64,000 nt of DNA from a virus. Positions 16,376 to 64,000 of the stretch are shown one piece after another. Within the stretch, counting starts at the first letter, position 1. Every line of letters starts with the position of its first letter. A program made the translations under genes and the position numbers. The stretch is taken from positions 49,073-113,072 of the IMG/VR virus record IMGVR_UViG_3300032050_000037. One strand, written 5' to 3'. The notes under the pieces are model-generated. The model had not been told where the DNA came from. It made no database searches and was given only the letters and a program-made list of their open reading frames with translations.

Positions 16376-16573
16376 ATGGCTAAAGAAAAATCCAGACGCT
16401 TGGAAAAATACTGGGTGGTGGTCTATATAAAGTTATATCAAAGTAAAGATTGGCTATATCGTAGATATATAGTTCAAAAGAAAACAGTTACTGAAATTTC
16501 TAAAGAATGTAAAGTTTCTGCTATGACTATACAAAGATACTTAGAGCAATTTGGATTAATTAAAAAGAGATGA
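16376..16573 (+). CDS. small HTH DNA-binding protein (start probably downstream)
   Basis: TVTEISKECKVSAMTIQRYL. Confidence 0.65.
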   Translation: MAKEKSRRLEKYWVVVYIKLYQSKDWLYRRYIVQKKTVTEISKECKVSAMTIQRYLEQFGLIKKR

Positions 16574-35671: not shown

Positions 35672-35714
35672 TTGACAAGGCTTTTAGTATCCCTGTATAA
35701 TAGTATACAGGGAT
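35672..35714 (+). promoter_or_regulatory. sigmaA promoter whose -10 lies in an 11-bp perfect inverted repeat
   Basis: TTGACA-N18-TATAAT; ATCCCTGTATA-ATAG-TATACAGGGAT. Confidence 0.7.
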
Positions 35715-35737
35715 TAGCCCTTTATATTTAAGGAAAA

Positions 35738-35968
35738 ATGTTACATTTAAACGAACGTGGCGTAGATATATTTATAAATAAATATAAATCATTTACTAGT
35801 GAAGCATACTGGAACAATTATGATTTAATTATTTGGAAAAAAAATAATAATGGATTTTTTAATATAAAAGGAATATTTAATAAAGCTTGGGGAATAGCAG
35901 ATAAAGTATCTGTAAACAATAAAGGAATGTGGGTTTTACCTAAACAATATGTCAAGTATTTTAAATGA
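35738..35968 (+). CDS. hypothetical protein
   Basis: AAGGA RBS. Confidence 0.6.
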   Translation: MLHLNERGVDIFINKYKSFTSEAYWNNYDLIIWKKNNNGFFNIKGIFNKAWGIADKVSVNNKGMWVLPKQYVKYFK

Positions 35969-36260
35969 TCTTGGAGTAGATAAAGAAGATTTAGATTGGT
36001 GGCATCTTGCTATTTGTAGAGGCATGGATACTAATCTTTTTTATGATAAATACGAAAATGATGAAAAAATTGCAAAAAATATTGACGAAGCCTGCTTAGC
36101 ATGCCCAGTAATATCAATGTGTTATAAATCTGGAATTCAAAATAATGAGTATGGAGTTTGGGGTGGAGTATATTTAAGTTCTGGCTCTATAGATAAAAAT
36201 AAAAATTTACATAAAACAAATGAAGTTTGGAAAAGATTAAAAGTTAAAAATGTATATTGA
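35949..36260 (+). CDS. whiB: WhiB-family Fe-S transcription factor
   Basis: AIC...CLACPV...C...GVWGG. Confidence 0.9.
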   Translation: MSSILNDLGVDKEDLDWWHLAICRGMDTNLFYDKYENDEKIAKNIDEACLACPVISMCYKSGIQNNEYGVWGGVYLSSGSIDKNKNLHKTNEVWKRLKVKNVY

Positions 36261-51371: not shown

Positions 51372-51563
51372 TTATTTATTTATATATGTTACTGATACTG
51401 GTCCACATAGTTCATTGTATCTATCTAATTCCGCCTGCTTTTTTGCCTTCTCTATTTTCTTCCATTTACGGAATGAAGCTAGGGCATGATTCTTATCTTT
51501 GCCCCGCTTCGGATCCGTCCATTTCTTTGCCTTTTTATTTGGAGTCCCTACGGGCTTGCTCAT
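51372..51563 (-). CDS. small basic protein
   Basis: Coupled to upstream ORF (ATGA). Confidence 0.55.
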   Translation of the reverse strand: MSKPVGTPNKKAKKWTDPKRGKDKNHALASFRKWKKIEKAKKQAELDRYNELCGPVSVTYINK

Positions 51564-53076: not shown

Positions 53077-53315
53077 TATTTTTCCTCATCCCATTCAATA
53101 TAATATTCATCATCTTTATTTAAATTATAATGTTTATTAAATCTACCTTTCAGATAATTTGAATCTGACATATCTGCAATACGCCAATCTGCATAGAATT
53201 GTCCTTCATTTAGATTTTCATACATCCAGTCATCTAATAATTGTTCAGCAATTGTTTGCAGTTCTGCGTCAATTACCATTTGATTTTCATTATCTAGAAA
53301 TGATGTTTCCGCCAT
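53076..53315 (-). CDS. acidic hypothetical early protein
   Basis: AACGAAAGGA RBS and TGTCAG-N10-TATAAT promoter. Confidence 0.7.
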   Translation of the reverse strand: MAETSFLDNENQMVIDAELQTIAEQLLDDWMYENLNEGQFYADWRIADMSDSNYLKGRFNKHYNLNKDDEYYIEWDEEK

Positions 53316-53467
53316 TTTATTCCTTTCGTTAGTATGACCTAATTATAATTCATACCACTGACATTTGTCTATATGGTGTGTATCACACAAAGCTTGATCA
53401 AATTTCCAGGAAATATACTTGACATCCGTAAAAGAGATATGCTACCCTCATGTCTTTTTGTGGGCAA

Positions 53468-53594
53468 ATCCCCCAGCTATAAAACTAGGGGATCAGGAAG
53501 AGTGGCTGCTAGGACCTCAACGAAAGGAAAAACCTGCTTTACTTAGCAACTCGATTAGTTGCACCACTCGTATAGATAGGCACCCAGGCCTACC
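53468..53594 (-). ncRNA. candidate trans-acting sRNA complementary to the shared early-gene RBS
   Basis: TGTTATAAT upstream, four stems plus a 3' hairpin, G-U pairs only on - strand, contains UUUUUCCUUUCGUU. Confidence 0.7.
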
Positions 53595-53608
53595 AATATT
53601 ATAACATA

Positions 53609-54013
53609 TTAGACGAGTAGTCTTTCCATTGCATACTTCTCACAGAATGCTTCTAGGTCCATGGTAAAGATTGCTTCATTCTTCATACCTAAAACTTTAT
53701 TCTCTAGGTTACGATGGTCGTCCTGTTCGTGCAATGAGAATGTTCGCTCTTGCCAATTAATCACGGCAATCTTGTGCTCATTGTCACCAATAGCATTTAC
53801 TTGCAGGCCCCATCCAGTCTCCATATTCCATTGGTCGCCGATTAGATGACTAATAGTAATACGTGTTGCATATGATTCATCATTCCAACGAGGACGGGCA
53901 GCAATAACAGCATCCGCTAATTTGCCTAGCATGTTATATCCAGCCCAGTGTCCATATAGACATATGGTGTCTCCTGCTCCATCTACGAATACAAAGTTTG
54001 CTCTGTCTCCCAT
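53609..54013 (-). CDS. hypothetical early protein
   Basis: MGDRANF...LYGHWAG; AAAGG RBS. Confidence 0.7.
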   Translation of the reverse strand: MGDRANFVFVDGAGDTICLYGHWAGYNMLGKLADAVIAARPRWNDESYATRITISHLIGDQWNMETGWGLQVNAIGDNEHKIAVINWQERTFSLHEQDDHRNLENKVLGMKNEAIFTMDLEAFCEKYAMERLLV

Positions 54014-54014
54014 T

Positions 54015-54203
54015 TTAAACCGCCTTTTCTAGTTGAGGTGTTTCTTCCGTTTTATTTAATTCTATCATTTCATAGGCCCACTTGTCTAGGCTTTCTGAAT
54101 TCTTATTTCGGTGATGCCCGCAAAATGCCAGCTCACCAGATGTGCTACGGGCTAACCATTTAGCCTGAGCTGAGCATGAATCACATTTAATCCATTCGCT
54201 CAT
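54015..54203 (-). CDS. Zn-finger protein
   Basis: CDSC...FCGHH. Confidence 0.65.
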   Translation of the reverse strand: MSEWIKCDSCSAQAKWLARSTSGELAFCGHHRNKNSESLDKWAYEMIELNKTEETPQLEKAV

Positions 54204-54346
54204 AGTTTATTGCTCTCTATCATGTCTGATAATCTATCTAGTAACCAGGAATCGATATCGTTAATATCAATCTCTCTTAGTTTCTCAATTAATTCCTCAC
54301 GAGCAAATTTATACCCGTCCTGGAATCCATCTTTATAATCAGACAT
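54200..54346 (-). CDS. 48-aa hypothetical protein
   Basis: GAGGA RBS, coupled on both sides. Confidence 0.55.
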   Translation of the reverse strand: MSDYKDGFQDGYKFAREELIEKLREIDINDIDSWLLDRLSDMIESNKL

Positions 54347-54567
54347 TACAATCCTCTCAAATATCCAGTAGGTTCATATTCAGCGACATAAGTTTCTTTT
54401 AAATTAAACTTATCTCTAATCCTACTTACCTTCTCAATATTACCAGTTCCGATATTGAAAGTCAATGATGTCATGGGCTGAGGATCCAGCCCAATCAAAT
54501 CTGCTTCCCAGTAAGCAGCCTTTAGTGCTTGCTGGGATGGAGCGGTTAGTTCGATATACATTACCAA
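54346..54567 (-). CDS. hypothetical protein
   Basis: Coupled ORF. Confidence 0.6.
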   Translation of the reverse strand: MVMYIELTAPSQQALKAAYWEADLIGLDPQPMTSLTFNIGTGNIEKVSRIRDKFNLKETYVAEYEPTGYLRGL

Positions 54568-55178
54568 TCCACATCCGCATCTTCAACATCAAATGTATCT
54601 ACAGTTAAATCACCATTGTATGAATCAATAGTTAGATTATCTTGTAGGAAGTATTTAGCATCAAAGTTTTCAACTTCCTCTAAAGGAATTTCATATTCAG
54701 CCTCAACACTAATTTGAGCGGTTATACGAATTGTTTGCTTTGGCTCGTGTCCAAGGATTTCACAAAGGTCACGAAGAATGTCTTCCTTATCTATATTTGG
54801 GTTGTACCAGCCATCTGCAGTTAAGTTAGATGTGATTTGATTAATTAAACTAACATTCTGCATAAGCGTCTTCTCAGTGTACTTAACTTGGTCTAATTGA
54901 TATTCCAGGCTAGTTACCTTGATTGTTGGGTAAGTTACCTCACCGTCGGTAATCGACTTGTATGTCACAAGTAGATTAGGGTTATAGGTCTCAGGGACCG
55001 TATTTGTTTCCATTTCTTTCCTTTCGTTGTTTGGGTGTATTGTAGCATCTTCCACTGACAATAGATTACATTCTATTCCACAGTGCCAAATGTTTCTGAA
55101 TTCATCTTTACGAGTTACCTCTATTAAAGCATCACATTCTGTGCAGAGATGTGAATCTTTAAACCAGCTTTCTGTCAT
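54561..55178 (-). CDS. hypothetical protein with nested in-frame start at 55013
   Basis: ATGA-coupled start at 55178; internal promoter and AACGAAAGG RBS before METN. Confidence 0.65.
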   Translation of the reverse strand: MTESWFKDSHLCTECDALIEVTRKDEFRNIWHCGIECNLLSVEDATIHPNNERKEMETNTVPETYNPNLLVTYKSITDGEVTYPTIKVTSLEYQLDQVKYTEKTLMQNVSLINQITSNLTADGWYNPNIDKEDILRDLCEILGHEPKQTIRITAQISVEAEYEIPLEEVENFDAKYFLQDNLTIDSYNGDLTVDTFDVEDADVDW

Positions 55179-55942
55179 GCTTCCACCTTTTCTAATAGAG
55201 AAACGTGTGTATCGCATTGTGCCATAGCCTCTTCATCTTGCCAAGAGCCTTGGTTACATTCTGAACAGAATTCACCACAGTCATTGTCACAATAACTTAA
55301 TGTGTCAAAAGATTGGCAGGCATAGCAACGATTCTCATATTCTAGAATCTCTGTGACATCACCACGGACAATCTCTAACTCTCCGCCCCAACCTTGCTCC
55401 TCTTCATATTCTAAAGTAAGCAAAGAGTTAGGAACCATATTAGATAGTTTAGTTAGAATTGTGACGGCAGGAGACCAAGCAGTATTATATTTATATATAA
55501 GCCAGTTATCATCACCGTCTGATTTATATTCAAGTAATTCTGTATCAGGATATTCCTCATCATCTGATACAGCAACATCCCATTTGGTACCCCAATTAGA
55601 GTTATTCCATGAATACCAATCTTTAGCGGTTTTAGCACGTTCAACAGATTTAGCAAACCAATCAGGGTCATTATTTATATCTATACCACTGCGGTCAGGT
55701 TGCTGTGCATATTCCTCATCTGTAATTCCATCATCCTTATATGAATGAATGTTGAAGAATGCAAATACAGGATTACTATATGTTACTTGTTTAATTTTAG
55801 TTGGGAATCCATGTGCACTAATGTCTCCCATTCCATGATTCTCTATTGCTAATGTAAATGGAGCATTTAGTTTATCCTTGATATAATCTATCTCAGACTT
55901 AGGTCCTTGGATTGTTAATGTGTTATATACCCAGTTTGGCAT
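55175..55942 (-). CDS. DUF1281/YubB ferredoxin-like domain protein
   Basis: MPNWVYN..WY.W...NWGTKWD...TAWSP; C-terminal Cys cluster. Confidence 0.75.
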   Translation of the reverse strand: MPNWVYNTLTIQGPKSEIDYIKDKLNAPFTLAIENHGMGDISAHGFPTKIKQVTYSNPVFAFFNIHSYKDDGITDEEYAQQPDRSGIDINNDPDWFAKSVERAKTAKDWYSWNNSNWGTKWDVAVSDDEEYPDTELLEYKSDGDDNWLIYKYNTAWSPAVTILTKLSNMVPNSLLTLEYEEEQGWGGELEIVRGDVTEILEYENRCYACQSFDTLSYCDNDCGEFCSECNQGSWQDEEAMAQCDTHVSLLEKVEA

Positions 55943-56062
55943 ATTATTCCTTTCGTTGTTGGCCCAATTATAGCGGATGAGACTGACAATTACAAGCATT
56001 TTCAGGAAAAAAATCCCCTTGCCGTAAGGAAGAAAATCGGCCTTCACCATCTGGGGGCTTTG

Positions 56063-56136
56063 CGATCCGTATGAGACTTGAACTCACGACCTCTACCGTG
56101 ACAGGGTAGCGCTCTAACCAACTGAGCTAACGGACC
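56063..56136 (-). tRNA. tRNA-Asp(GTC)
   Basis: GGTCCGTTAGCTCAGTTGGTTAGAGCGCTACCCTGTCACGGTAG...TTCAAGT...ACGGATCG. Confidence 0.92.
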
Positions 56137-56166
56137 TAAGAGGGGCCCCTTGCGGGGCCCATTTAT

Positions 56167-57183
56167 TTAGATGAGTTGCAAATTAGTTTGAACAACTTTA
56201 AGCAGACGATTTTTTTCTGCGTTAATAGTTGCATCAAATCCACTTGCAGAGGCTAACAGATTTTCATTGTTAGCACCACGAGCAGAACGGTGCCAATCTA
56301 AACGCTCAGTTAAAGCATTAAGAGCACCCCACGCATTACCAGCGATTGTATGATTAAATTCGCCAGTATAAATATCGTTGATTAAATCAACTTTATTTTG
56401 CCATTTTTTAACAGCACCCTTAGTATCCTTAGTAGGTTTAGGATATGCAGCCAAAATGATATCGTTAAATTGTTGAGCAGTAATTTCCTTCTCAATCATC
56501 AACTTAGCCATTTTATCGAATTCATCCATGTATGCATTAGCAAGACCTAAAGTCTCACGAGCAACTTGCACACGACCTTGTGCGGTTTGTGTGTGGCGAA
56601 TTTTGAATGATTGCTTTACGCCATCACGCTTTTTTGTACGACCTAACGCAAGGTTAAGAGTGTTAGCACATACAACACGAACAGGTGTAATGCTTGCTTG
56701 AATAGCAATAGTTCCGTCATGTGATGTGTTAATAAGCAAATAAGTTTTTACTTTATCTGCCACGCCATTAGGGTCTAATACAGTCTCACGCTCTAATGCA
56801 AGAGAGCCGAATACAACACGACCACCACGAATTGAGCCAGCAGTCTCCCAACGTCCACCGCCGTCAAGAATGTTATCTCCGAATGCAAATAATTCTTCAT
56901 TTTGCAATGGTACATAACGCTCACCAACAATTCCTAAAACGTCGGTTTGTGTTTTGTCCGTAGGATTAGTACGCACAACATATTGATAGTTTTTATCGCT
57001 TGTTAATGTAGATGGAATTTCTAATTCCTCTAAGCGAACATTCCAACCATTAAGGTTAGCAGCCTCTAGCATTTCGCTAGTTGTTTTTTCTTCTGTGAAC
57101 ACAGTACCTAAACCATGCCACGCAGGTTCACGGAATGATGCAAAACTTGCAACACCGTTTTGAGTTTCTAACTCATGAGCCAT
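56167..57183 (-). CDS. DUF932 / TIGR03299 phage-plasmid protein
   Basis: PAWHGLG, VGERY..LQN, ETAGS, NTSHDG, PVRVVCANT, IRHT. Confidence 0.85.
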   Translation of the reverse strand: MAHELETQNGVASFASFREPAWHGLGTVFTEEKTTSEMLEAANLNGWNVRLEELEIPSTLTSDKNYQYVVRTNPTDKTQTDVLGIVGERYVPLQNEELFAFGDNILDGGGRWETAGSIRGGRVVFGSLALERETVLDPNGVADKVKTYLLINTSHDGTIAIQASITPVRVVCANTLNLALGRTKKRDGVKQSFKIRHTQTAQGRVQVARETLGLANAYMDEFDKMAKLMIEKEITAQQFNDIILAAYPKPTKDTKGAVKKWQNKVDLINDIYTGEFNHTIAGNAWGALNALTERLDWHRSARGANNENLLASASGFDATINAEKNRLLKVVQTNLQLI

Positions 57184-57262
57184 TTTTTATCCTTTCGTTT
57201 TGAGTTGCCTAATTTTAACACACATGACTGACATTGACAAGACTAACACACATTTTCAGGAG

Positions 57263-57294
57263 TTATCCACAAGGGCCCGTAAACCTGTGGAAAA
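57263..57294. promoter_or_regulatory. pair of inverted DnaA boxes
   Basis: TTATCCACA 57263-57271; TGTGGAAAA 57286-57294. Confidence 0.65.
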
Positions 57295-57372
57295 CCCCGC
57301 AGCTACTTGCGGGCAGGGGAAGATGGGCCAGGGATCTAGATGATTACACGACACAAACCTGGCCCAAGATTA

Positions 57373-57585
57373 TTAGATTAGACTATGAATGTCCTCTGGA
57401 AAGAAAGCAGCAAATATTTTTTTATTTTGATTAGTATCAAAAACATATGCTTTGATATTGCCTTGAAATCTATTTAGATTATCTTTTACAAGACGGGTTA
57501 AAGAATTACGATTTAAGTTTTCTTCTGAGTAGATAGTTAAATCGTGAGCTTTATTAGCATCATATATTTCTACACGATAACGCAT
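57373..57585 (-). CDS. hypothetical protein
   Basis: AAAAGGA RBS, TAGACA-N17-TACAAT promoter. Confidence 0.6.
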   Translation of the reverse strand: MRYRVEIYDANKAHDLTIYSEENLNRNSLTRLVKDNLNRFQGNIKAYVFDTNQNKKIFAAFFPEDIHSLI

Positions 57586-57654
57586 TTTATTCCTTTTGTA
57601 GTAGGGACATGAATTGTAGCATGGGGGCTAGGTTTTGTCTAGCCCCCGCTAAGA

Positions 57655-58077
57655 TTACAAGTATCTTGCGATAGCGTTGTAAGTAGAAGTAGAAACTACC
57701 TCCTCATCGGTCATCTTGAGAATACGGATAGCATTTTCCATTTCCTCTTTCATTTCACGATAAGTATGAAGGTGAATAACCTCGTAGTCCTTTTCAGGCT
57801 CTTTTGGAAAATCCTTTTCATCGCATACAAGGTCAAAATCTACATTGAGAGTTTTGTTCCAAGAGCGATAGTTGGTGCGTAGGTTTTCTGCTTTTGCTAT
57901 TTGAGCAACGGCATACTTACCAAGTTCCTTTGACCACTTCTCACGGGCTTTATTATACTTTGCTTCGTTTTCATCTTGTTTCTTAAAGTCAGCCTCTACT
58001 TGTGCTAACTTTGCTTCTAAGGCTTTGATAACCTTAGCAGTAGGTATTTTTACCTGTATTGCTTTTCCTCTTGCCAT
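57655..58077 (-). CDS. hypothetical early protein
   Basis: AACGAAAGGA RBS + PafBC-type promoter. Confidence 0.7.
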   Translation of the reverse strand: MARGKAIQVKIPTAKVIKALEAKLAQVEADFKKQDENEAKYNKAREKWSKELGKYAVAQIAKAENLRTNYRSWNKTLNVDFDLVCDEKDFPKEPEKDYEVIHLHTYREMKEEMENAIRILKMTDEEVVSTSTYNAIARYL

Positions 58078-58146
58078 TTATTTTTCCTTTCGTTGGGTTT
58101 TGGTTTATTATAGCGGATACCACCGACAAGCAGTATCCGCTAACTA

Positions 58147-58290
58147 TTACTTAACTGATACTGAAGTCCAGCGTTCTTTGCCATTTACATCTAGCAAGAC
58201 ACGATTTACTCCGCTTGGGTGATTATCAATAGCCTTGATAATTCCAGTAATACCACTTTGAGTAGTTGTGTATAGTTGTCCGATTTCCAT
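58147..58290 (-). CDS. small SH3-like hypothetical protein
   Basis: AACGAAAGGA RBS before MEIGQLY. Confidence 0.6.
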   Translation of the reverse strand: MEIGQLYTTTQSGITGIIKAIDNHPSGVNRVLLDVNGKERWTSVSVK

Positions 58291-58338
58291 TTTGTTTCCT
58301 TTCGTTTGAAGTTGTATTATAGCACCCACCACCGACAA

Positions 58339-58617
58339 TTAGTAGTCGGTTTCAGGTAGCCAAGCCTCTAGGTGGTGAGCCTCTACAATAGCGCAGGCAG
58401 GTGCTTTAGTCATGCCCTTCCAAGATACGCCTTCAGGTAGAGTTATCTTTCTGTTATAGTCCTCATCGTAGTAAGCATCAATAGCATCTATACAAGGTTG
58501 GATCATAGATTTAGGAACGGGTGGGTAATGATTACCCTGTAAGTGCATTCCTATCTGAGTTTCCAAGTCTAAGTCTAATAAGCCATCGGCTAATTCTGTT
58601 GCTAGATTACTCCCCAT
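58339..58617 (-). CDS. hypothetical protein
   Basis: HLQGNHYPPVP...AHHL motif; GGAGG RBS. Confidence 0.65.
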   Translation of the reverse strand: MGSNLATELADGLLDLDLETQIGMHLQGNHYPPVPKSMIQPCIDAIDAYYDEDYNRKITLPEGVSWKGMTKAPACAIVEAHHLEAWLPETDY

Positions 58618-58891
58618 TATTATCCTCCTCCAAGATAGTTTCGGTTAAGTTGTCCATTTCGTTAATACTATCAACAAGGTCTGACATTTGTTGTTCAGTT
58701 AATAATACTTTAGTAGTAAGGTCTGCTACTTTGCTTGCTAACGCTACTGAATACATATAGATATATCTAGGGAATTGATTATCATTAAGTTCATTTCTGC
58801 GTGTGTGTAGTTCGCCAGCCAATGCCATAATTTCATCATCATATATGGCTTCTTTGGTTGCGCTTGCTATTGATATTGCTGTTGCTAACAT
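58607..58891 (-). CDS. hypothetical early protein
   Basis: AACGAAAGGA RBS + PafBC-type promoter. Confidence 0.65.
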   Translation of the reverse strand: MLATAISIASATKEAIYDDEIMALAGELHTRRNELNDNQFPRYIYMYSVALASKVADLTTKVLLTEQQMSDLVDSINEMDNLTETILEEDNNGE

Positions 58892-59155
58892 ATTTTCCTT
58901 TCGTTGTGTATGGAATTATATCAGTATTAACTGACATTTATTGCGACACGCCCATATTTTCCAGGGTGATTTACATCACACCCATAACGACACGCCCGAC
59001 CCCGCAGCTAGTGTGGGGGCTTTTATCCGCTAAGCCCGTCTCCATTTGAATCATATTTATTATAAGTAACTAAATAAATTATTATTGCGAATGGGGCCAC
59101 TAGTACCAACGATAACAGGGCCCCAATTATTTCTCCGATTAAAAAATCCATGGAC

Positions 59156-59875
59156 CTACTTTTTACTAGCAGAAAATCTAACATCTGCTTTTCCAAATAC
59201 ACACAAGCCACACGATACACAAGCGGAACCATTAGCAGAAATTAGCGGAATGCTTTTATTATTTTCAGGACATTTAGCGCCAGGCTTACCGATTAATTCT
59301 TTCATAGTATTTTCGGTGACAGCAAAAGTTTTTCCTAAATAAGCCAATCTAATTTTAGTACCAGTCTTACGCAGATCATGCGCTATATCTTTATTCTCAT
59401 CATCCGTAGAATAATAAAGAGACAAGTTATCAATACCGTCTAGGATAATGGCAGCAGACTTTACACGAGTGTACACCCAGAATTGCACGTCGACATTATT
59501 ATTAATAACAGTCTTCCATGCATATGCATAAGTATCATTAAAGAAATCGCCGTCCCAGTGGATACGGAATAACTTTTTAGCATTGCGCTTATCACAATCT
59601 TTTTTAAAGTCATCAATCATTGCAGATAGAAGAGAAACCATAGTTTCTTGATCAGCGTCTTTTAATAAATTCCAATTATGCATGAGCACGTCTTTAACGC
59701 CTTTATATACTTTTTCTAATTTGCCTGCATAGCATACGCTTTCGCACACGCTAGTGGCGCCAGGACATGAGAATGCTTTTCCTGCAGGCAGCCCGAATGT
59801 ATTTGCAATTGTAGGAGTTTTACCGTTAGGGGAAACGGCATTAGCTACTTTACGATCATTAGATCTTTTTAACAT
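59156..59875 (-). CDS. GP88-family (radical-SAM-like Fe-S) protein, leaderless
   Basis: FGLPAG..CPGAT.VC...CYA, FRIHWDGDF, YTR, C..CGLC; ATG 7 nt after TATAAT. Confidence 0.8.
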   Translation of the reverse strand: MLKRSNDRKVANAVSPNGKTPTIANTFGLPAGKAFSCPGATSVCESVCYAGKLEKVYKGVKDVLMHNWNLLKDADQETMVSLLSAMIDDFKKDCDKRNAKKLFRIHWDGDFFNDTYAYAWKTVINNNVDVQFWVYTRVKSAAIILDGIDNLSLYYSTDDENKDIAHDLRKTGTKIRLAYLGKTFAVTENTMKELIGKPGAKCPENNKSIPLISANGSACVSCGLCVFGKADVRFSASKK

Positions 59876-59904
59876 GGGAGGAATTATAGCAGCTTGAGCT
59901 GACA

Positions 59905-60060
59905 TTATAGGTCCCCCATTTCTGCATCAGCCATGCGTGTCATAGCCCAATCTTGCGCTAGATCACGATCATACACGGCCATGCCTTCGCTAGTATAACC
60001 ACGGGCACAAATTGTGCAAATAGAATAGTTTGTGCAATAGCAGGAATTGATATCGTTCAT
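59905..60060 (-). CDS. 51-aa Cys-rich protein
   Basis: AACGAAAGG RBS; CYC...CTIC. Confidence 0.6.
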   Translation of the reverse strand: MNDINSCYCTNYSICTICARGYTSEGMAVYDRDLAQDWAMTRMADAEMGDL

Positions 60061-60193
60061 TAGTTGACCTTTCGTTAAGTTGAGAGAATGCTATCAGGTC
60101 AGACTGACATTTACAAATCGACACGCCGAATTCCAGGAATTTTTAAATATGTGTCTTAAATCACAAAGCGCCCCCACAGCTTTTGTGGGCGCA

Positions 60194-60209
60194 TCGAACA
60201 TTTGTTCTA
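60194..60209. promoter_or_regulatory. actinobacterial SOS (LexA) box-like site
   Basis: TCGAAC-ATTT-GTTCTA vs consensus TCGAAC-N4-GTTCGA (1 mismatch). Confidence 0.6.
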
Positions 60210-60315
60210 ATATTATCTAGAAGCTTTTTTATGTTTTATTTTTCTAGTATATTTTTTTTTATTGCGAACAGGTTGCGCCGCATTACTACGGCGCAATTCC
60301 TGAATTCGTTTTACT

Positions 60316-60507
60316 TTATTTCGAAGAGTAGTTTGGAATATGATAACCACCAGCCTTATAAAAAATTTGTGCGTCAAACTTTGGATTATCTTTCGCAAAC
60401 ATTAAAGCAAAATCAACAACAACTTTAGAGAATAAAGCGGGGTGAACTTTATCGCTCATATATTTTAGAATTTCAGCGGTAGCAACATAGTCTTTACGGG
60501 TCATCAT
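60316..60507 (-). CDS. hypothetical protein
   Basis: MTRKDY..A...F..DNPKFD..IF motif; coupled. Confidence 0.65.
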   Translation of the reverse strand: MMTRKDYVATAEILKYMSDKVHPALFSKVVVDFALMFAKDNPKFDAQIFYKAGGYHIPNYSSK

Positions 60508-60704
60508 TTTGCCGACACCAATCCAATCGCATTAAAGTTTTTTGTATACATTTTGCCATTTGGCATTTCTAAATTATAGGTTGCGTATTCTTTAGCAAAT
60601 CCATAGTCTTTACATCTAGCAAAAGCCTCAAACGCTTCTAATGCGTCAGAGAATTGGTGTGTAAATTCTAGGTTGCCGTCATAGTAAGTAAATAGTTTAT
60701 ACAT
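60504..60704 (-). CDS. hypothetical early protein
   Basis: AACGAAAGGA RBS before MYKLFTYY. Confidence 0.65.
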   Translation of the reverse strand: MYKLFTYYDGNLEFTHQFSDALEAFEAFARCKDYGFAKEYATYNLEMPNGKMYTKNFNAIGLVSAK

Positions 60705-60814
60705 TAGTTTTCCTTTCGTTGGGTTGAACATAGGCATTTTGTTATTGTTATTGTATCGCTTACCACCGACAAAGTGGCAAGCGTTGAGCAATCATCACAG
60801 AGAAAAATTTCCAT

Positions 60815-60958
60815 TTAGAAATCCAATTCTAAACTTTGTGGATTACATAAGCAAGGCTCAAGGTCAAAAGTATCCTCGTTGCCATAGTAAAGCCAACCTT
60901 GTCCGTAGCATGTGCCACAGTTTTTAATTTCCTCTAGTAGAGATTTTATTTTTGCCAT
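60815..60958 (-). CDS. 47-aa Cys protein
   Basis: AACGAAAGGA RBS; CGTCYGQG...PCLC. Confidence 0.6.
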   Translation of the reverse strand: MAKIKSLLEEIKNCGTCYGQGWLYYGNEDTFDLEPCLCNPQSLELDF

Positions 60959-60993
60959 TTTAGTTTTCCTTTCGTTTTGTTAGCGGTATTGTA

Positions 60994-61140
60994 TCAGTTA
61001 TCGCTGACAATTGGCAAAACGGGAGAGCCTTCCAACTCTAACCCAATTTCTAAATCTAACAATTCTTCGGAAGTGGCTTCGGATAAATCTACCCAGCCAG
61101 CCCCGTTTTCATTAACACGGAAAATTTCTATGTATCCCAT
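60994..61140 (-). CDS. 48-aa acidic protein
   Basis: TAATG coupling. Confidence 0.5.
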   Translation of the reverse strand: MGYIEIFRVNENGAGWVDLSEATSEELLDLEIGLELEGSPVLPIVSDN

Positions 61141-61343
61141 TATTCACCGACTTTCACCGCTATTGTGCGGAATTTATTTTTCAAAGTATGAGGAGAAAAG
61201 ATTTCTACCAAATACGCTTCGGTATTTTCTCCATACCAAATTGGTTGATTAGATTTCTCTGCTGAAACAATTTCTCCAGTAAGAGTTTTTGAATTATAGG
61301 TTTTACCAATTAGTAAATCCTCAATTGTGTATAAGTTAGCCAT
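61140..61343 (-). CDS. hypothetical early protein
   Basis: AACGAAAGGA RBS + PafBC-type promoter. Confidence 0.65.
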   Translation of the reverse strand: MANLYTIEDLLIGKTYNSKTLTGEIVSAEKSNQPIWYGENTEAYLVEIFSPHTLKNKFRTIAVKVGE

Positions 61344-61395
61344 TTAAGTTTTCCTTTCGTTATGTCGTTATTTTAACATAATCCACCGACAATTA

Positions 61396-61600
61396 CCACC
61401 GACACGCCGTAAATTACAAGAATGTAATTATGTGTTCTTAATCACACGAGTTATCCACGACACGCCCGAAGTTTTCCACAGATTTCCAGGGTTTTCCACA
61501 ATCTGTTCATAAACCTGTGGATAACCCCCACAAAAGCCTGCGGGCAGCTGTCGCCCTTGTCAAGGCGACACGCCGATTATTCTTTGTGAGGTTGCTCACA
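61396..61600. promoter_or_regulatory. dense array of DnaA-, CRP- and WhiA-like sites
   Basis: TTATCCACG, TTTTCCACA x2, TGTGGATAA; TGTGW-N6-TCACA x2; CGACACGCC x3. Confidence 0.7.
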
Positions 61601-61805
61601 TACGCATTTAGTATATGCGCCAGCGTTAAGCCTGCCACATTTAGGGCAGGTATAGAATCCGCTAGGGTTAGCCATTATCTACCCCACTTATATCCTACTA
61701 GATCGCAAGCGTATCCGTCTGCGGTATTGTGGCAGTTAGCATAGACGGGCTCAGAGTATAAATCAAATAGCGCAATCGCTATCAGTAAAGCAATCGCTAA
61801 CCTAA

Positions 61806-61946
61806 TCATTTACGACCCTTCCACAATTTAACACCGATTACAATAATAAAAGCGGTGGCAATACTTAGCCAATTAAACTCAGTATAAAACCAATCAGTAG
61901 AAATCGTTAAACCAAAATCGCTTAATTCTAAATCAAAATAAATCAT
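61806..61946 (-). CDS. small membrane protein
   Basis: C-terminal TM helix, coupled ORF. Confidence 0.5.
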   Translation of the reverse strand: MIYFDLELSDFGLTISTDWFYTEFNWLSIATAFIIVIGVKLWKGRK

Positions 61947-62119
61947 TATTCGGCACTCTCCCAATCTAGTGTTAATTCATTTTCGATTACCTCATCAAGG
62001 CTAATCATGTCCTCATCAAATAGGCTCTCCTCATTATGTTTATCTATCGCCTCTAGTTCGTCTAGGTGGCGATAAGCGTCTGCGACATCTGCTTGAATAG
62101 TGTCCCATTTAGTCATCAT
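61946..62119 (-). CDS. 57-aa highly acidic protein
   Basis: AGGAG RBS. Confidence 0.55.
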   Translation of the reverse strand: MMTKWDTIQADVADAYRHLDELEAIDKHNEESLFDEDMISLDEVIENELTLDWESAE

Positions 62120-62125
62120 TAGTTA

Positions 62126-62284
62126 TTACTCCTGTTCCATTTTAGAGATAAAGTAAGAGAACTTTATCTGAGGTTTAACGCTGTTTAGTTCGTCTATTGT
62201 TTTTACTACATCTTTCATAGATGAAGCGGTGAAGCCAATGCCCTTTAGTTGAGAGCCTTGCCATATTGAGTATGTTATTTTCAT
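62126..62284 (-). CDS. 52-aa hypothetical protein
   Basis: AACGAAAGGA RBS + PafBC-type promoter. Confidence 0.6.
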   Translation of the reverse strand: MKITYSIWQGSQLKGIGFTASSMKDVVKTIDELNSVKPQIKFSYFISKMEQE

Positions 62285-62363
62285 TTAGTTTTCCTTTCGT
62301 TGTTATGAGATAAATCTAGCACATGCTACCGACAAAACGCAAGCCTTGTCGGTGTGATGTTGC

Positions 62364-62477
62364 TCACCAACATGATGAGCAAGAGCAATGGGATTGATGT
62401 CCCTTAGTAAACGGAGTATGAGCAGGACCTTGTCCCTCATAGGCGATACATGTATCACAAGTTAATTCGTTATTCAT
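62364..62477 (-). CDS. 37-aa Cys/His-rich peptide
   Basis: AACGAAAGGA RBS; CDTC...HCSCSSCW. Confidence 0.55.
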   Translation of the reverse strand: MNNELTCDTCIAYEGQGPAHTPFTKGHQSHCSCSSCW

Positions 62478-62727
62478 ATTTATATCCTTTCGTTATATAT
62501 ATAACTCTACATGAGGGGACTGACAATTTCCACTAGACAAATCGGACATGTCGGACATTTTCAAAACTTTTTCAAAATATTCATGTGATATACACCACAT
62601 ATGGTCGCTCTAATAGGACAAATCGGACATTTTAAATATGTGTATCATACAAATAAAATCTCTATTAACATTTTATGAAATCTGATATTATAGTCGACTA
62701 GAATAAAATATAGTATACTGAATATAT

Positions 62728-63470: not shown

Positions 63471-64000
63471 TTAGTCAATTAAAAATGAAATATCTTTTCT
63501 TGTTTTAATGACACAAGGAACTATTGTATGATTAGGATCATTATGTCTATCTATTGCAATAGAGTCTAATGAACTAAATATTTCTGGGGTGATTCTTTCA
63601 GCTTTTAATTTATTTTCATATGCATCTAAATACTCTTGAAATGTCATAGTTGGATTTTCTATTTTATTATATTCTCTTCTTTTTTCGATTTTCACTGATC
63701 CGTCGAAATATGATAAAAATTGTCTTATATAATATTTAGAATTTCCTTCTTTTAATCTCTTAACACCATGATATACATCTACAGGAAATATTAATCCGTC
63801 TCCTGCTTGCATTTTATATTCAAAATAATCCTCTACAAGCCAAGCCTCACCAGTCTCACCAGAGATAGCATCTACATATGGGACCTTTTCTACATTTTCA
63901 TGTTTAAAGAATATAATGTCTCCACCTTCGTAATCATCGTTAATATATATATTAAAATTAAAAGAATGATTTTGATCATAGGCTCCACCTTTAATTACAT
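63471..64000 (-). CDS. 2OG-Fe(II) oxygenase, 5' end beyond window
   Basis: Frame open to window edge: NIYINDDYEGGDIIF...YHGVKRL..KYYIR. Confidence 0.8.
   Translation of the reverse strand, partial: VIKGGAYDQNHSFNFNIYINDDYEGGDIIFFKHENVEKVPYVDAISGETGEAWLVEDYFEYKMQAGDGLIFPVDVYHGVKRLKEGNSKYYIRQFLSYFDGSVKIEKRREYNKIENPTMTFQEYLDAYENKLKAERITPEIFSSLDSIAIDRHNDPNHTIVPCVIKTRKDISFLID

Follow-up and report, generated by a model that had tools for sequence, protein, structure and literature searches.

An array of PafBC-like promoter motifs in a block of small conserved genes of an uncultured viral genome

Results

The DNA considered here, referred to as the window, comprises the final 64 kb of the 113,072-bp IMG/VR virus record IMGVR_UViG_3300032050_000037, a genome with a GC content of 33%; all coordinates are those of the window unless genome coordinates are specified. 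On the minus strand, between positions 51560 and 62477, lies a block of approximately 30 small genes, most of them conserved in the phage family and without known function. Within this block, we found 15 copies of a promoter-like motif, TGTCRG-N10-TANNNT, that resembles the promoters activated by the actinobacterial regulator PafBC. The named gene families of the block are DUF932 / phrog_1221 (338 amino acids [aa]), GP88 and an Api92-like family with a DUF1281_C domain (255 aa), and a tRNA-Asp gene also lies inside it; a megablast comparison of the block with GenBank phages gave no match. The minus-strand arm runs from approximately 99.5 kb, across the junction of the record's ends, to approximately 4 kb (genome coordinates). 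Because genome positions 1-183 are repeated at 112890-113072 (window 63818-64000), the record, although listed as 'linear', is a closed assembly, which represents either a circularly permuted genome or a collapsed terminal repeat.

The record almost certainly derives from an uncultured lake phage of an actinobacterium. Its DnaE-type polymerase shares 56% identity with the corresponding enzymes of the Streptomyces phages BillNye and Samisti12 (Stanwilliamsviridae), and homologues of its DUF932 gene are found in the terminal repeat of Jay2Jay-type phages, amid small minus-strand genes. The phage also carries a WhiB gene, and whiB has been used as an actinophage marker for lake metagenomes (PMC10914622). 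Near-identical DNA occurs in freshwater and lake metagenomes and in runs labelled as fungus metagenome, from 11 studies in all; two of the runs are labelled RNA-Seq, but look like DNA and consist of contigs. An actinobacterial host is indicated by the WhiB gene, by the DnaE identity to Streptomyces phages and by a leaderless gene described below. The mycobacterial setting assumed in an earlier, sequence-only reading of this DNA was not borne out, in that we are dealing with a freshwater phage of 33% GC that is distant kin of the Stanwilliamsviridae phages of Streptomyces. The phage KatG was considered as a host marker and discarded, because it shows approximately 60% identity to sequences across many phyla in genome contigs and is not diagnostic.

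The 15 copies of TGTCRG-N10-TANNNT in the window are all on the minus strand and span 53342-62525 (9.2 kb), whereas dinucleotide-preserving shuffles yielded 1.06 copies on average and never more than 4. The sequence-only reading had described this minus-strand array as 14 sites; the array is where it was said to be, as are the three sites quoted as examples, and the true number is 15. TGTCRG is invariant and the spacing to TANNNT is exactly 10 nucleotides (nt) in all 15 copies. No further copy was found on either strand in the rest of the 113,072-bp genome, in agreement with the earlier remark that none was seen in the 50-kb plus-strand region. Within the block, there are neither copies with one mismatch nor variants with N9 or N11 spacing, and one-mismatch matches outside it are scattered at background level (15 on the plus strand and 10 on the minus strand). 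Because copies elsewhere and near variants within the block are both lacking, the motif is unusually crisp and restricted to one arm of the genome. According to the sequence-only reading, the plus-strand region uses TTGAC-type and extended -10 promoters, which is plausible: sites resembling TTGACA-N17/18-TATAAT occur at 2040, 35672, 38305 and 46119, and a k-mer search of that strand for an additional promoter class returned only extended -10 elements and AAGGAGAAA ribosome sites.

In 13 of the 15 copies, the ribosome site AACGAAAGG and an ATG follow 12-45 nt past the -10 element. The copy at 58665 is paired with the ribosome site GGAGGAGG instead, and in the copy at 59883 an ATG lies only 7 nt past TATAAT, opening a 239-aa gene (59875-59156, minus strand). 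The product of this gene matches the Pfam family GP88 (PF17338; E 7e-55, profile positions 3-228 of 230), and because it fits the profile from the first residues, beginning near this ATG, we regard the gene as leaderless, which fixes the start of its transcript. No other leaderless gene was seen in the block, and leaderless starts are an actinobacterial trait. Judged from their sequence context, the 15 sites are predicted to be real promoters.

In the direction of transcription, the first site, TGTCAG-N10-TAGAGT (62504-62525), lies ahead of AACGAAAGG and a 37-aa open reading frame (ORF; 62477-62364) with an ATG start, and the second, TGTCGG-N10-TAGATT (62313-62334), ahead of ORFs of 52 aa (62284-62126) and 57 aa (62119-61946). 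The third, TGTCGGTGG...TAAAAT (61370-61391), which has a second motif, GCGTGTCG, 13 nt upstream, precedes a 67-aa ORF (61343-61140) and a 48-aa ORF. The fourth, TGTCAG-N10-TACAAT (60988-61009), has a TGn and the -35-like hexamer TTGCCA at a spacing of 18 and serves a 47-aa ORF (60958-60815); the fifth, TGTCGGTGG...TACAAT (60750-60771), lies before ORFs of 66 aa (60704-60504) and 63 aa (60507-60316). A 51-aa ORF (60060-59905) follows the sixth, TGTCAG-N10-TAGCAT (60088-60109), with GCGTGTCG 14 nt upstream, and the seventh, TGTCAG-N10-TATAAT (59883-59904), is that of the leaderless GP88-family gene. The eighth, TGTCAG-N10-TATAAT (58915-58936), with GCGTGTCG 12 nt upstream, precedes a 94-aa ORF (58891-58607), within the 3′ end of which lies the ninth, TGTCAG-N10-TAGTAT (58665-58686), serving the 92-aa ORF (58617-58339) that has the GGAGGAGG ribosome site. 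The tenth, TGTCGGTGGTGGGTGC-TATAAT (58316-58337), has a spacer similar to those of the host island promoters described below and precedes a 47-aa ORF (58290-58147), and the eleventh, TGTCGGTGG...TATAAT (58107-58128), lies before ORFs of 140 aa (58077-57655) and 70 aa (57585-57373). Larger genes follow the next two: the twelfth, TGTCAG-N10-TAAAAT (57212-57233), precedes the 338-aa DUF932 / phrog_1221 gene (57183-56167) and then the tRNA-Asp gene (56136-56062), and the thirteenth, TGTCAG-N10-TATAAT (55967-55988), precedes the 255-aa gene with the DUF1281_C (Api92-like) domain (55942-55175). Downstream of the fourteenth, TGTCAGTGG...TACAAT (55039-55060), are a 150-aa gene (55013-54561) and, as far as 53609, another four small genes. 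The last, TGTCAGTGG...TATAAT (53342-53363), has the -35-like hexamer TAGACA at a spacing of 18 and is followed by a 79-aa gene (53315-53076) and further minus-strand genes to approximately 51560.

The unit of promoter and ribosome site is widely conserved. A scan of IMG/VR for this unit yielded at least 119 loci; the family figures given hereafter refer to the 119 loci listed, whose median GC content is 38.5%. Wherever a listed locus has several copies, all of them lie on a single strand. The full motif was found upstream of 330 of 367 AACGAAAGG sites, and when the search was anchored on the ribosome site and any TANNNT, 320 of 348 cases had TGTCAG (240) or TGTCGG (80) at the exact offset. The resulting family logo reads aaa-TGTC(A 83% / G 17%)G-T-S-S-N4-T-G-N-TAtaaT, and a -35 consensus is absent from it. 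Most genes of the block are conserved across these loci, largely in the same order, with the GP88 and Api92-like cassettes moved or missing in some.

How does this motif compare with known promoters? PafBC promoters have a canonical -10, a PafBC-specific element at -23 to -28 and no -35; residues R46 and R50 of PafB read both guanines of a strictly conserved GTC, and PafC docks on region 4 of sigma (PMC8635444). In the phage, TGTCRG lies at -29 to -24 as counted from the leaderless start, which is 7 nt past the -10, and the 6-7 nt gaps of host leaderless genes place it at -28 to -23. The phage motif matches the PafBC promoters exactly in sequence and geometry, and the identification of the motif with the RecA-NDp / PafBC motif by the sequence-only reading is supported by the GTC triplet at -28 to -23 and the -10 box (PMC8635444). 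The likeness to the PafBC (RecA-NDp, recA P1-type) promoters of Mycobacterium and other Actinobacteria comprises TGTCRG with its invariant GTC, the N10 spacer, TANNNT and, often, a T and then G/C directly after TGTCRG. The phage differs in that its 15 sites form an array before small genes of unassigned function, and not before repair genes, and in that A is dominant at position 5, the -10 is mostly extended and a weak -35 is often present.

Profile searches of the phage, which took up the question of whether it has a WYL gene of its own, found no phage-encoded WYL, Sigma70_r2 or HTH_11 domain. The C-terminal domain of MotA (MotCF) had no match at E <= 1 in the whole phage genome; AsiA was not searched for. 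A 66-aa open frame (16448-16537, plus strand) gave a match to the Sigma70_r4-like helix-turn-helix below the cut-off (14 bits, E 0.004), which we do not treat as a sigma factor; its product may be a small DNA-binding regulator.

On the host side, WYL-domain proteins are present in 398 of 401 evenly sampled genomes of the class Actinomycetes. This tally takes in ten unpublished genomes (G011, G019, G028, G034, G036, G040, G047, G267, G308 and G377), which are used for no other claim. As stand-ins for the host, we took from this sample eight genomes, each a single contig of 1.3-1.4 Mb, and scanned them with the pattern TGTCRGT-N9-TANNNT. The matches exceeded those of a reversed-pattern control by approximately 2:1, with G at position 8 in most. 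Each small genome has approximately 5-11 PafBC-type sites. The genes behind them include recA, in several of the genomes (L221, L227), a DnaE-type polymerase (L215), carD (L202, L204), LysM (L212) and DUF6504 (L222). Orthologous sites, in which position 5 is either A or G, are also present in five more genomes. Many host sites precede leaderless genes whose start codons are 6-7 nt past the -10. Tandem pafB-pafC genes, that is, two adjacent WYL genes, were found in three of the small genomes checked; in one of these genomes, G221, the first WYL gene matches Mycobacterium smegmatis PafB (7P5X, 9FND) with E 7e-34, and K5, R8, E42, R46, R50, K52 and R56 are conserved. TGTC(A/G)GTG is therefore best described as the predicted form of the damage-response promoter in small-genome actinomycetes, and it is the form found in the phage.

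In each small genome, most of the PafBC-type sites are gathered in one island of 15-50 kb, often before leaderless genes; examples are at 443-489 kb (G144:C1), 420-433 kb (G269:C1), 915-948 kb (G185:C1) and 428-457 kb (G299:C1). The island genes encode a type II DNA methyltransferase, trypsin-like peptidases, CAAX/Rce1-like proteases, a TPR protein and unknown proteins. PADLOC, applied to the island genes, returned only the type II methyltransferase and weak protease-domain matches, and we offer the term 'defence island' as a suggestion. From the position of the motifs, the island may be wired to a single-stranded-DNA alarm.

A second motif, GCGTGTCG, was found in the phage block by motif search in six copies, all on the minus strand, compared with an expectation of 0.03 (58944-58951, 58988-58995, 60119-60126, 61400-61407, 61458-61465 and 61566-61573). 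Three of them (61400, 61458 and 61566) lie in an ORF-free stretch at 61400-61573, and two (58944-58995) are upstream of the eighth promoter. In three of the six cases, GCGTGTCG stands 12-14 nt upstream of TGTCRG. In the related loci, there are 393 copies in 86 of the 119 listed, compared with approximately 10 expected. GCGTGTCG may be the site for a putative regulator of a subset of the block promoters.

Discussion

How might these promoters be read? We consider it probable that the 15 sites are promoters of a conserved, probably early block, at which the housekeeping RNA polymerase of the host would start with the help of host PafBC. In this scheme, the invariant GTC of TGTCRG, located at about -28 to -23, would be recognised by PafB, sigma region 4 would be the docking site of PafC (sigma adaptation), and the TANNNT -10, usually with an extended TGn, would complete recognition. 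PafBC is activated by single-stranded DNA and not by single-stranded RNA, and alone it does not bind promoter DNA but joins only a polymerase already on such a promoter (PMC11804915). Because PafBC is active only when holding single-stranded DNA, the block would be boosted when infection yields it, through resected ends, phage replication or breakdown of host DNA, and the extended -10 and frequent weak -35 would probably give a basal start without PafBC. We infer the host lineage, the dependence on PafBC, the trigger and the timing. The host-PafBC idea put forward in the sequence-only reading therefore survives in its core, namely the sequence and geometry of the motif and the presence of the same motif before recA in actinomycetes carrying pafBC; its mycobacterial setting and its site count required correction, as did its effector, given as 'single-stranded nucleic acid', of which the DNA part holds and the RNA part does not, because single-stranded RNA is inactive (PMC11804915).

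Several observations weigh against this explanation. First, the extended -10 (TGn) is present in 10 of the 15 copies and in 59% of the family, compared with one of seven host sites in G221. Second, a hexamer matching TTGACA at four or more of its six positions, 17-19 nt from the -10, is found in seven of the 15 copies (47%) and in 38% of the family, compared with 8-12% (roughly 10%) at control offsets, and at five or more positions the match at this distance is found in 17%, compared with approximately 1%. In these elements, the phage promoters surpass those of the host. Because an extended -10 and a weak -35 are common in the phage promoters and host PafBC promoters lack a -35, the former may fire with sigma A alone, either with PafBC as a booster or with no need of it. 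Third, among the cultured relatives, the motif occurs 0 times in BillNye and twice, at background level, in Jay2Jay, which makes the array a trait of the low-GC lake family and not of the wider group. Fourth, the stand-in loci that we fetched have GC contents of 43-51%, compared with 33% in the phage, and these genomes are only plausible stand-ins for the host. Finally, PafBC needs single-stranded DNA, which may be lacking when infection has only just begun, and TGTCRG could be read by an unrecognised phage protein.

The block probably consists of early or host-takeover genes, a timing that we infer from the layout only: a cluster of small one-strand genes with many promoters of their own fits an early module. 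The early host-takeover regions of SPO1 and T5 have a similar layout. The likeness extends to the direct terminal repeat of Jay2Jay-type phages, in that all of these have a one-strand block of small genes, nearly each with its own strong promoter. Jay2Jay has a DUF932 homologue in its terminal repeat and promoters there that resemble the ordinary -35/-10 type, ending TGTAGACT, whereas the lake phage has the motif array, and only a 183-bp assembly overlap is resolved in it. The sequence CCGGACA in Jay2Jay was considered as a reversed PafBC element and ruled out, since it forms part of terminator-like hairpins.

It is possible, although we doubt it, that the block is not early but a middle or conditional module, turned on after replication starts either by PafBC together with replication-derived single-stranded DNA or by a phage activator, which would come from the canonical plus-strand promoters. 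The requirement of PafBC for single-stranded DNA (PMC11804915) would fit such a delay, and the canonical TTGACA/TATAAT promoters of the plus strand could fire first. However, the DUF932 homologue is among the small genes of the Jay2Jay-type terminal repeat, and many independent strong promoters before tiny genes are typical of early regions. Activation after replication is, in any case, compatible with reading of the promoters by host PafBC.

The main rival of the PafBC reading, although again unlikely, is that the sites are strong sigma-A promoters independent of PafBC, built on the extended -10 and the weak -35, in which TGTCRG serves as the operator of a different factor. This factor could be a regulator, encoded by the phage or brought in with the virion, that sets the timing of the block or shuts it off, and the likeness to PafBC promoters would then be coincidence or convergence. 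Beyond the frequencies of TGn and of the -35-like hexamer given above, and the scarcity of TGn in the host sites of G221, the conserved second motif GCGTGTCG points to the action of other regulators in the block, and the equivalent block of Jay2Jay uses -35/-10 promoters. However, the exact spacing to the -10 suits a factor that touches the polymerase better than a repressor, and the same sequence, down to the A/G at position 5 and the T and then G/C that come next, stands before recA in genomes that carry pafBC. Moreover, the -35-like hexamer is missing in more than half of the copies, and except for the 14-bit helix-turn-helix match we found no phage DNA-binding regulator of a known family.

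That the sites serve chiefly as a sink, 15 per genome copy multiplied by replication, which would divert PafBC-loaded polymerase from host repair and island genes and blunt the damage or defence response, with expression secondary, is very improbable. In its favour, small host-like genomes have only approximately 5-11 sites, which a replicating phage would outnumber, and many of these lie in one island before methyltransferase and protease-like genes. Against it, every phage site is tied to a ribosome site and a gene, both conserved, and clearly appears to drive that gene. In addition, binding of PafBC requires that RNA polymerase has already occupied the promoter (PMC11804915), and the titration proposed in the sequence-only reading would be at most a by-product of transcription.

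Among known phage systems, reading by host PafBC would most resemble the middle promoters of T4, in which an upstream element takes the place of the -35, an adaptor sits on sigma region 4 and the -10 is normal; sigma appropriation by MotA/AsiA has been compared with PafBC in the study of the PafBC promoters itself (PMC8635444). The T4 adaptors are made by the phage and remodel sigma, whereas here the presumed adaptor would be the host's and would sense single-stranded DNA. On the bacterial side, the WYL proteins BrxR and CapW regulate phage-defence loci in response to single-stranded DNA or infection (PMC9122601, PMC11662680). They share with PafBC the sensor family and the use of single-stranded DNA as a signal of infection or damage that changes transcription. 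However, BrxR and CapW are host repressors of host defence genes, whereas here the phage would benefit from an activator.

The only known role of PafBC and its promoter is that of a host DNA-damage switch, and our full-text literature searches found no paper describing phage promoters of the PafBC type. We would give about even chances to the broader proposition that a widespread family of freshwater actinophages has swapped ordinary early promoters for copies of the host PafBC promoter, so that the single-stranded-DNA alarm of the host turns on the takeover genes and the phage and the host island compete for this alarm. Such competition is suggested because in the likely hosts this switch also appears to control a variable island that carries methyltransferase, protease-like and CAAX-protease genes. 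If true, this would be a new way of timing phage genes, in which a host sensor of single-stranded DNA is borrowed in place of a factor of the phage's own, and it would give PafBC a role in the infection of the most abundant freshwater bacteria. The existing in vitro transcription assay for PafBC offers a ready test system. In addition, a motif this short and strict should be of practical use as a marker, both in assigning uncultured phages to hosts among the actinobacteria and in locating the early regions of such phages.

Two further features of the phage deserve mention. In lake and wastewater runs, there are contigs of related strains in which different parts of the block are joined, and the breakpoints fall on the conserved units of promoter, 5′ leader and ribosome site (53300-53331, 55945, 58105-58316, 59006-59017, 60086, 60226, 60975-60981 and 61557). 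The repeated units may be recombination points for the shuffling of cassettes; alternatively, the breakpoints may reflect ambiguity of alignment between repeated units. The second feature is the phage WhiB gene (35672-36170, plus strand), which stands behind a near-consensus TTGACA-N18-TATAAT promoter with a TGn. WhiB-like proteins bind region 4 of sigma A, on a surface also used by PafC, and it is pure speculation that the phage WhiB might interfere with PafBC-type transcription later in infection.

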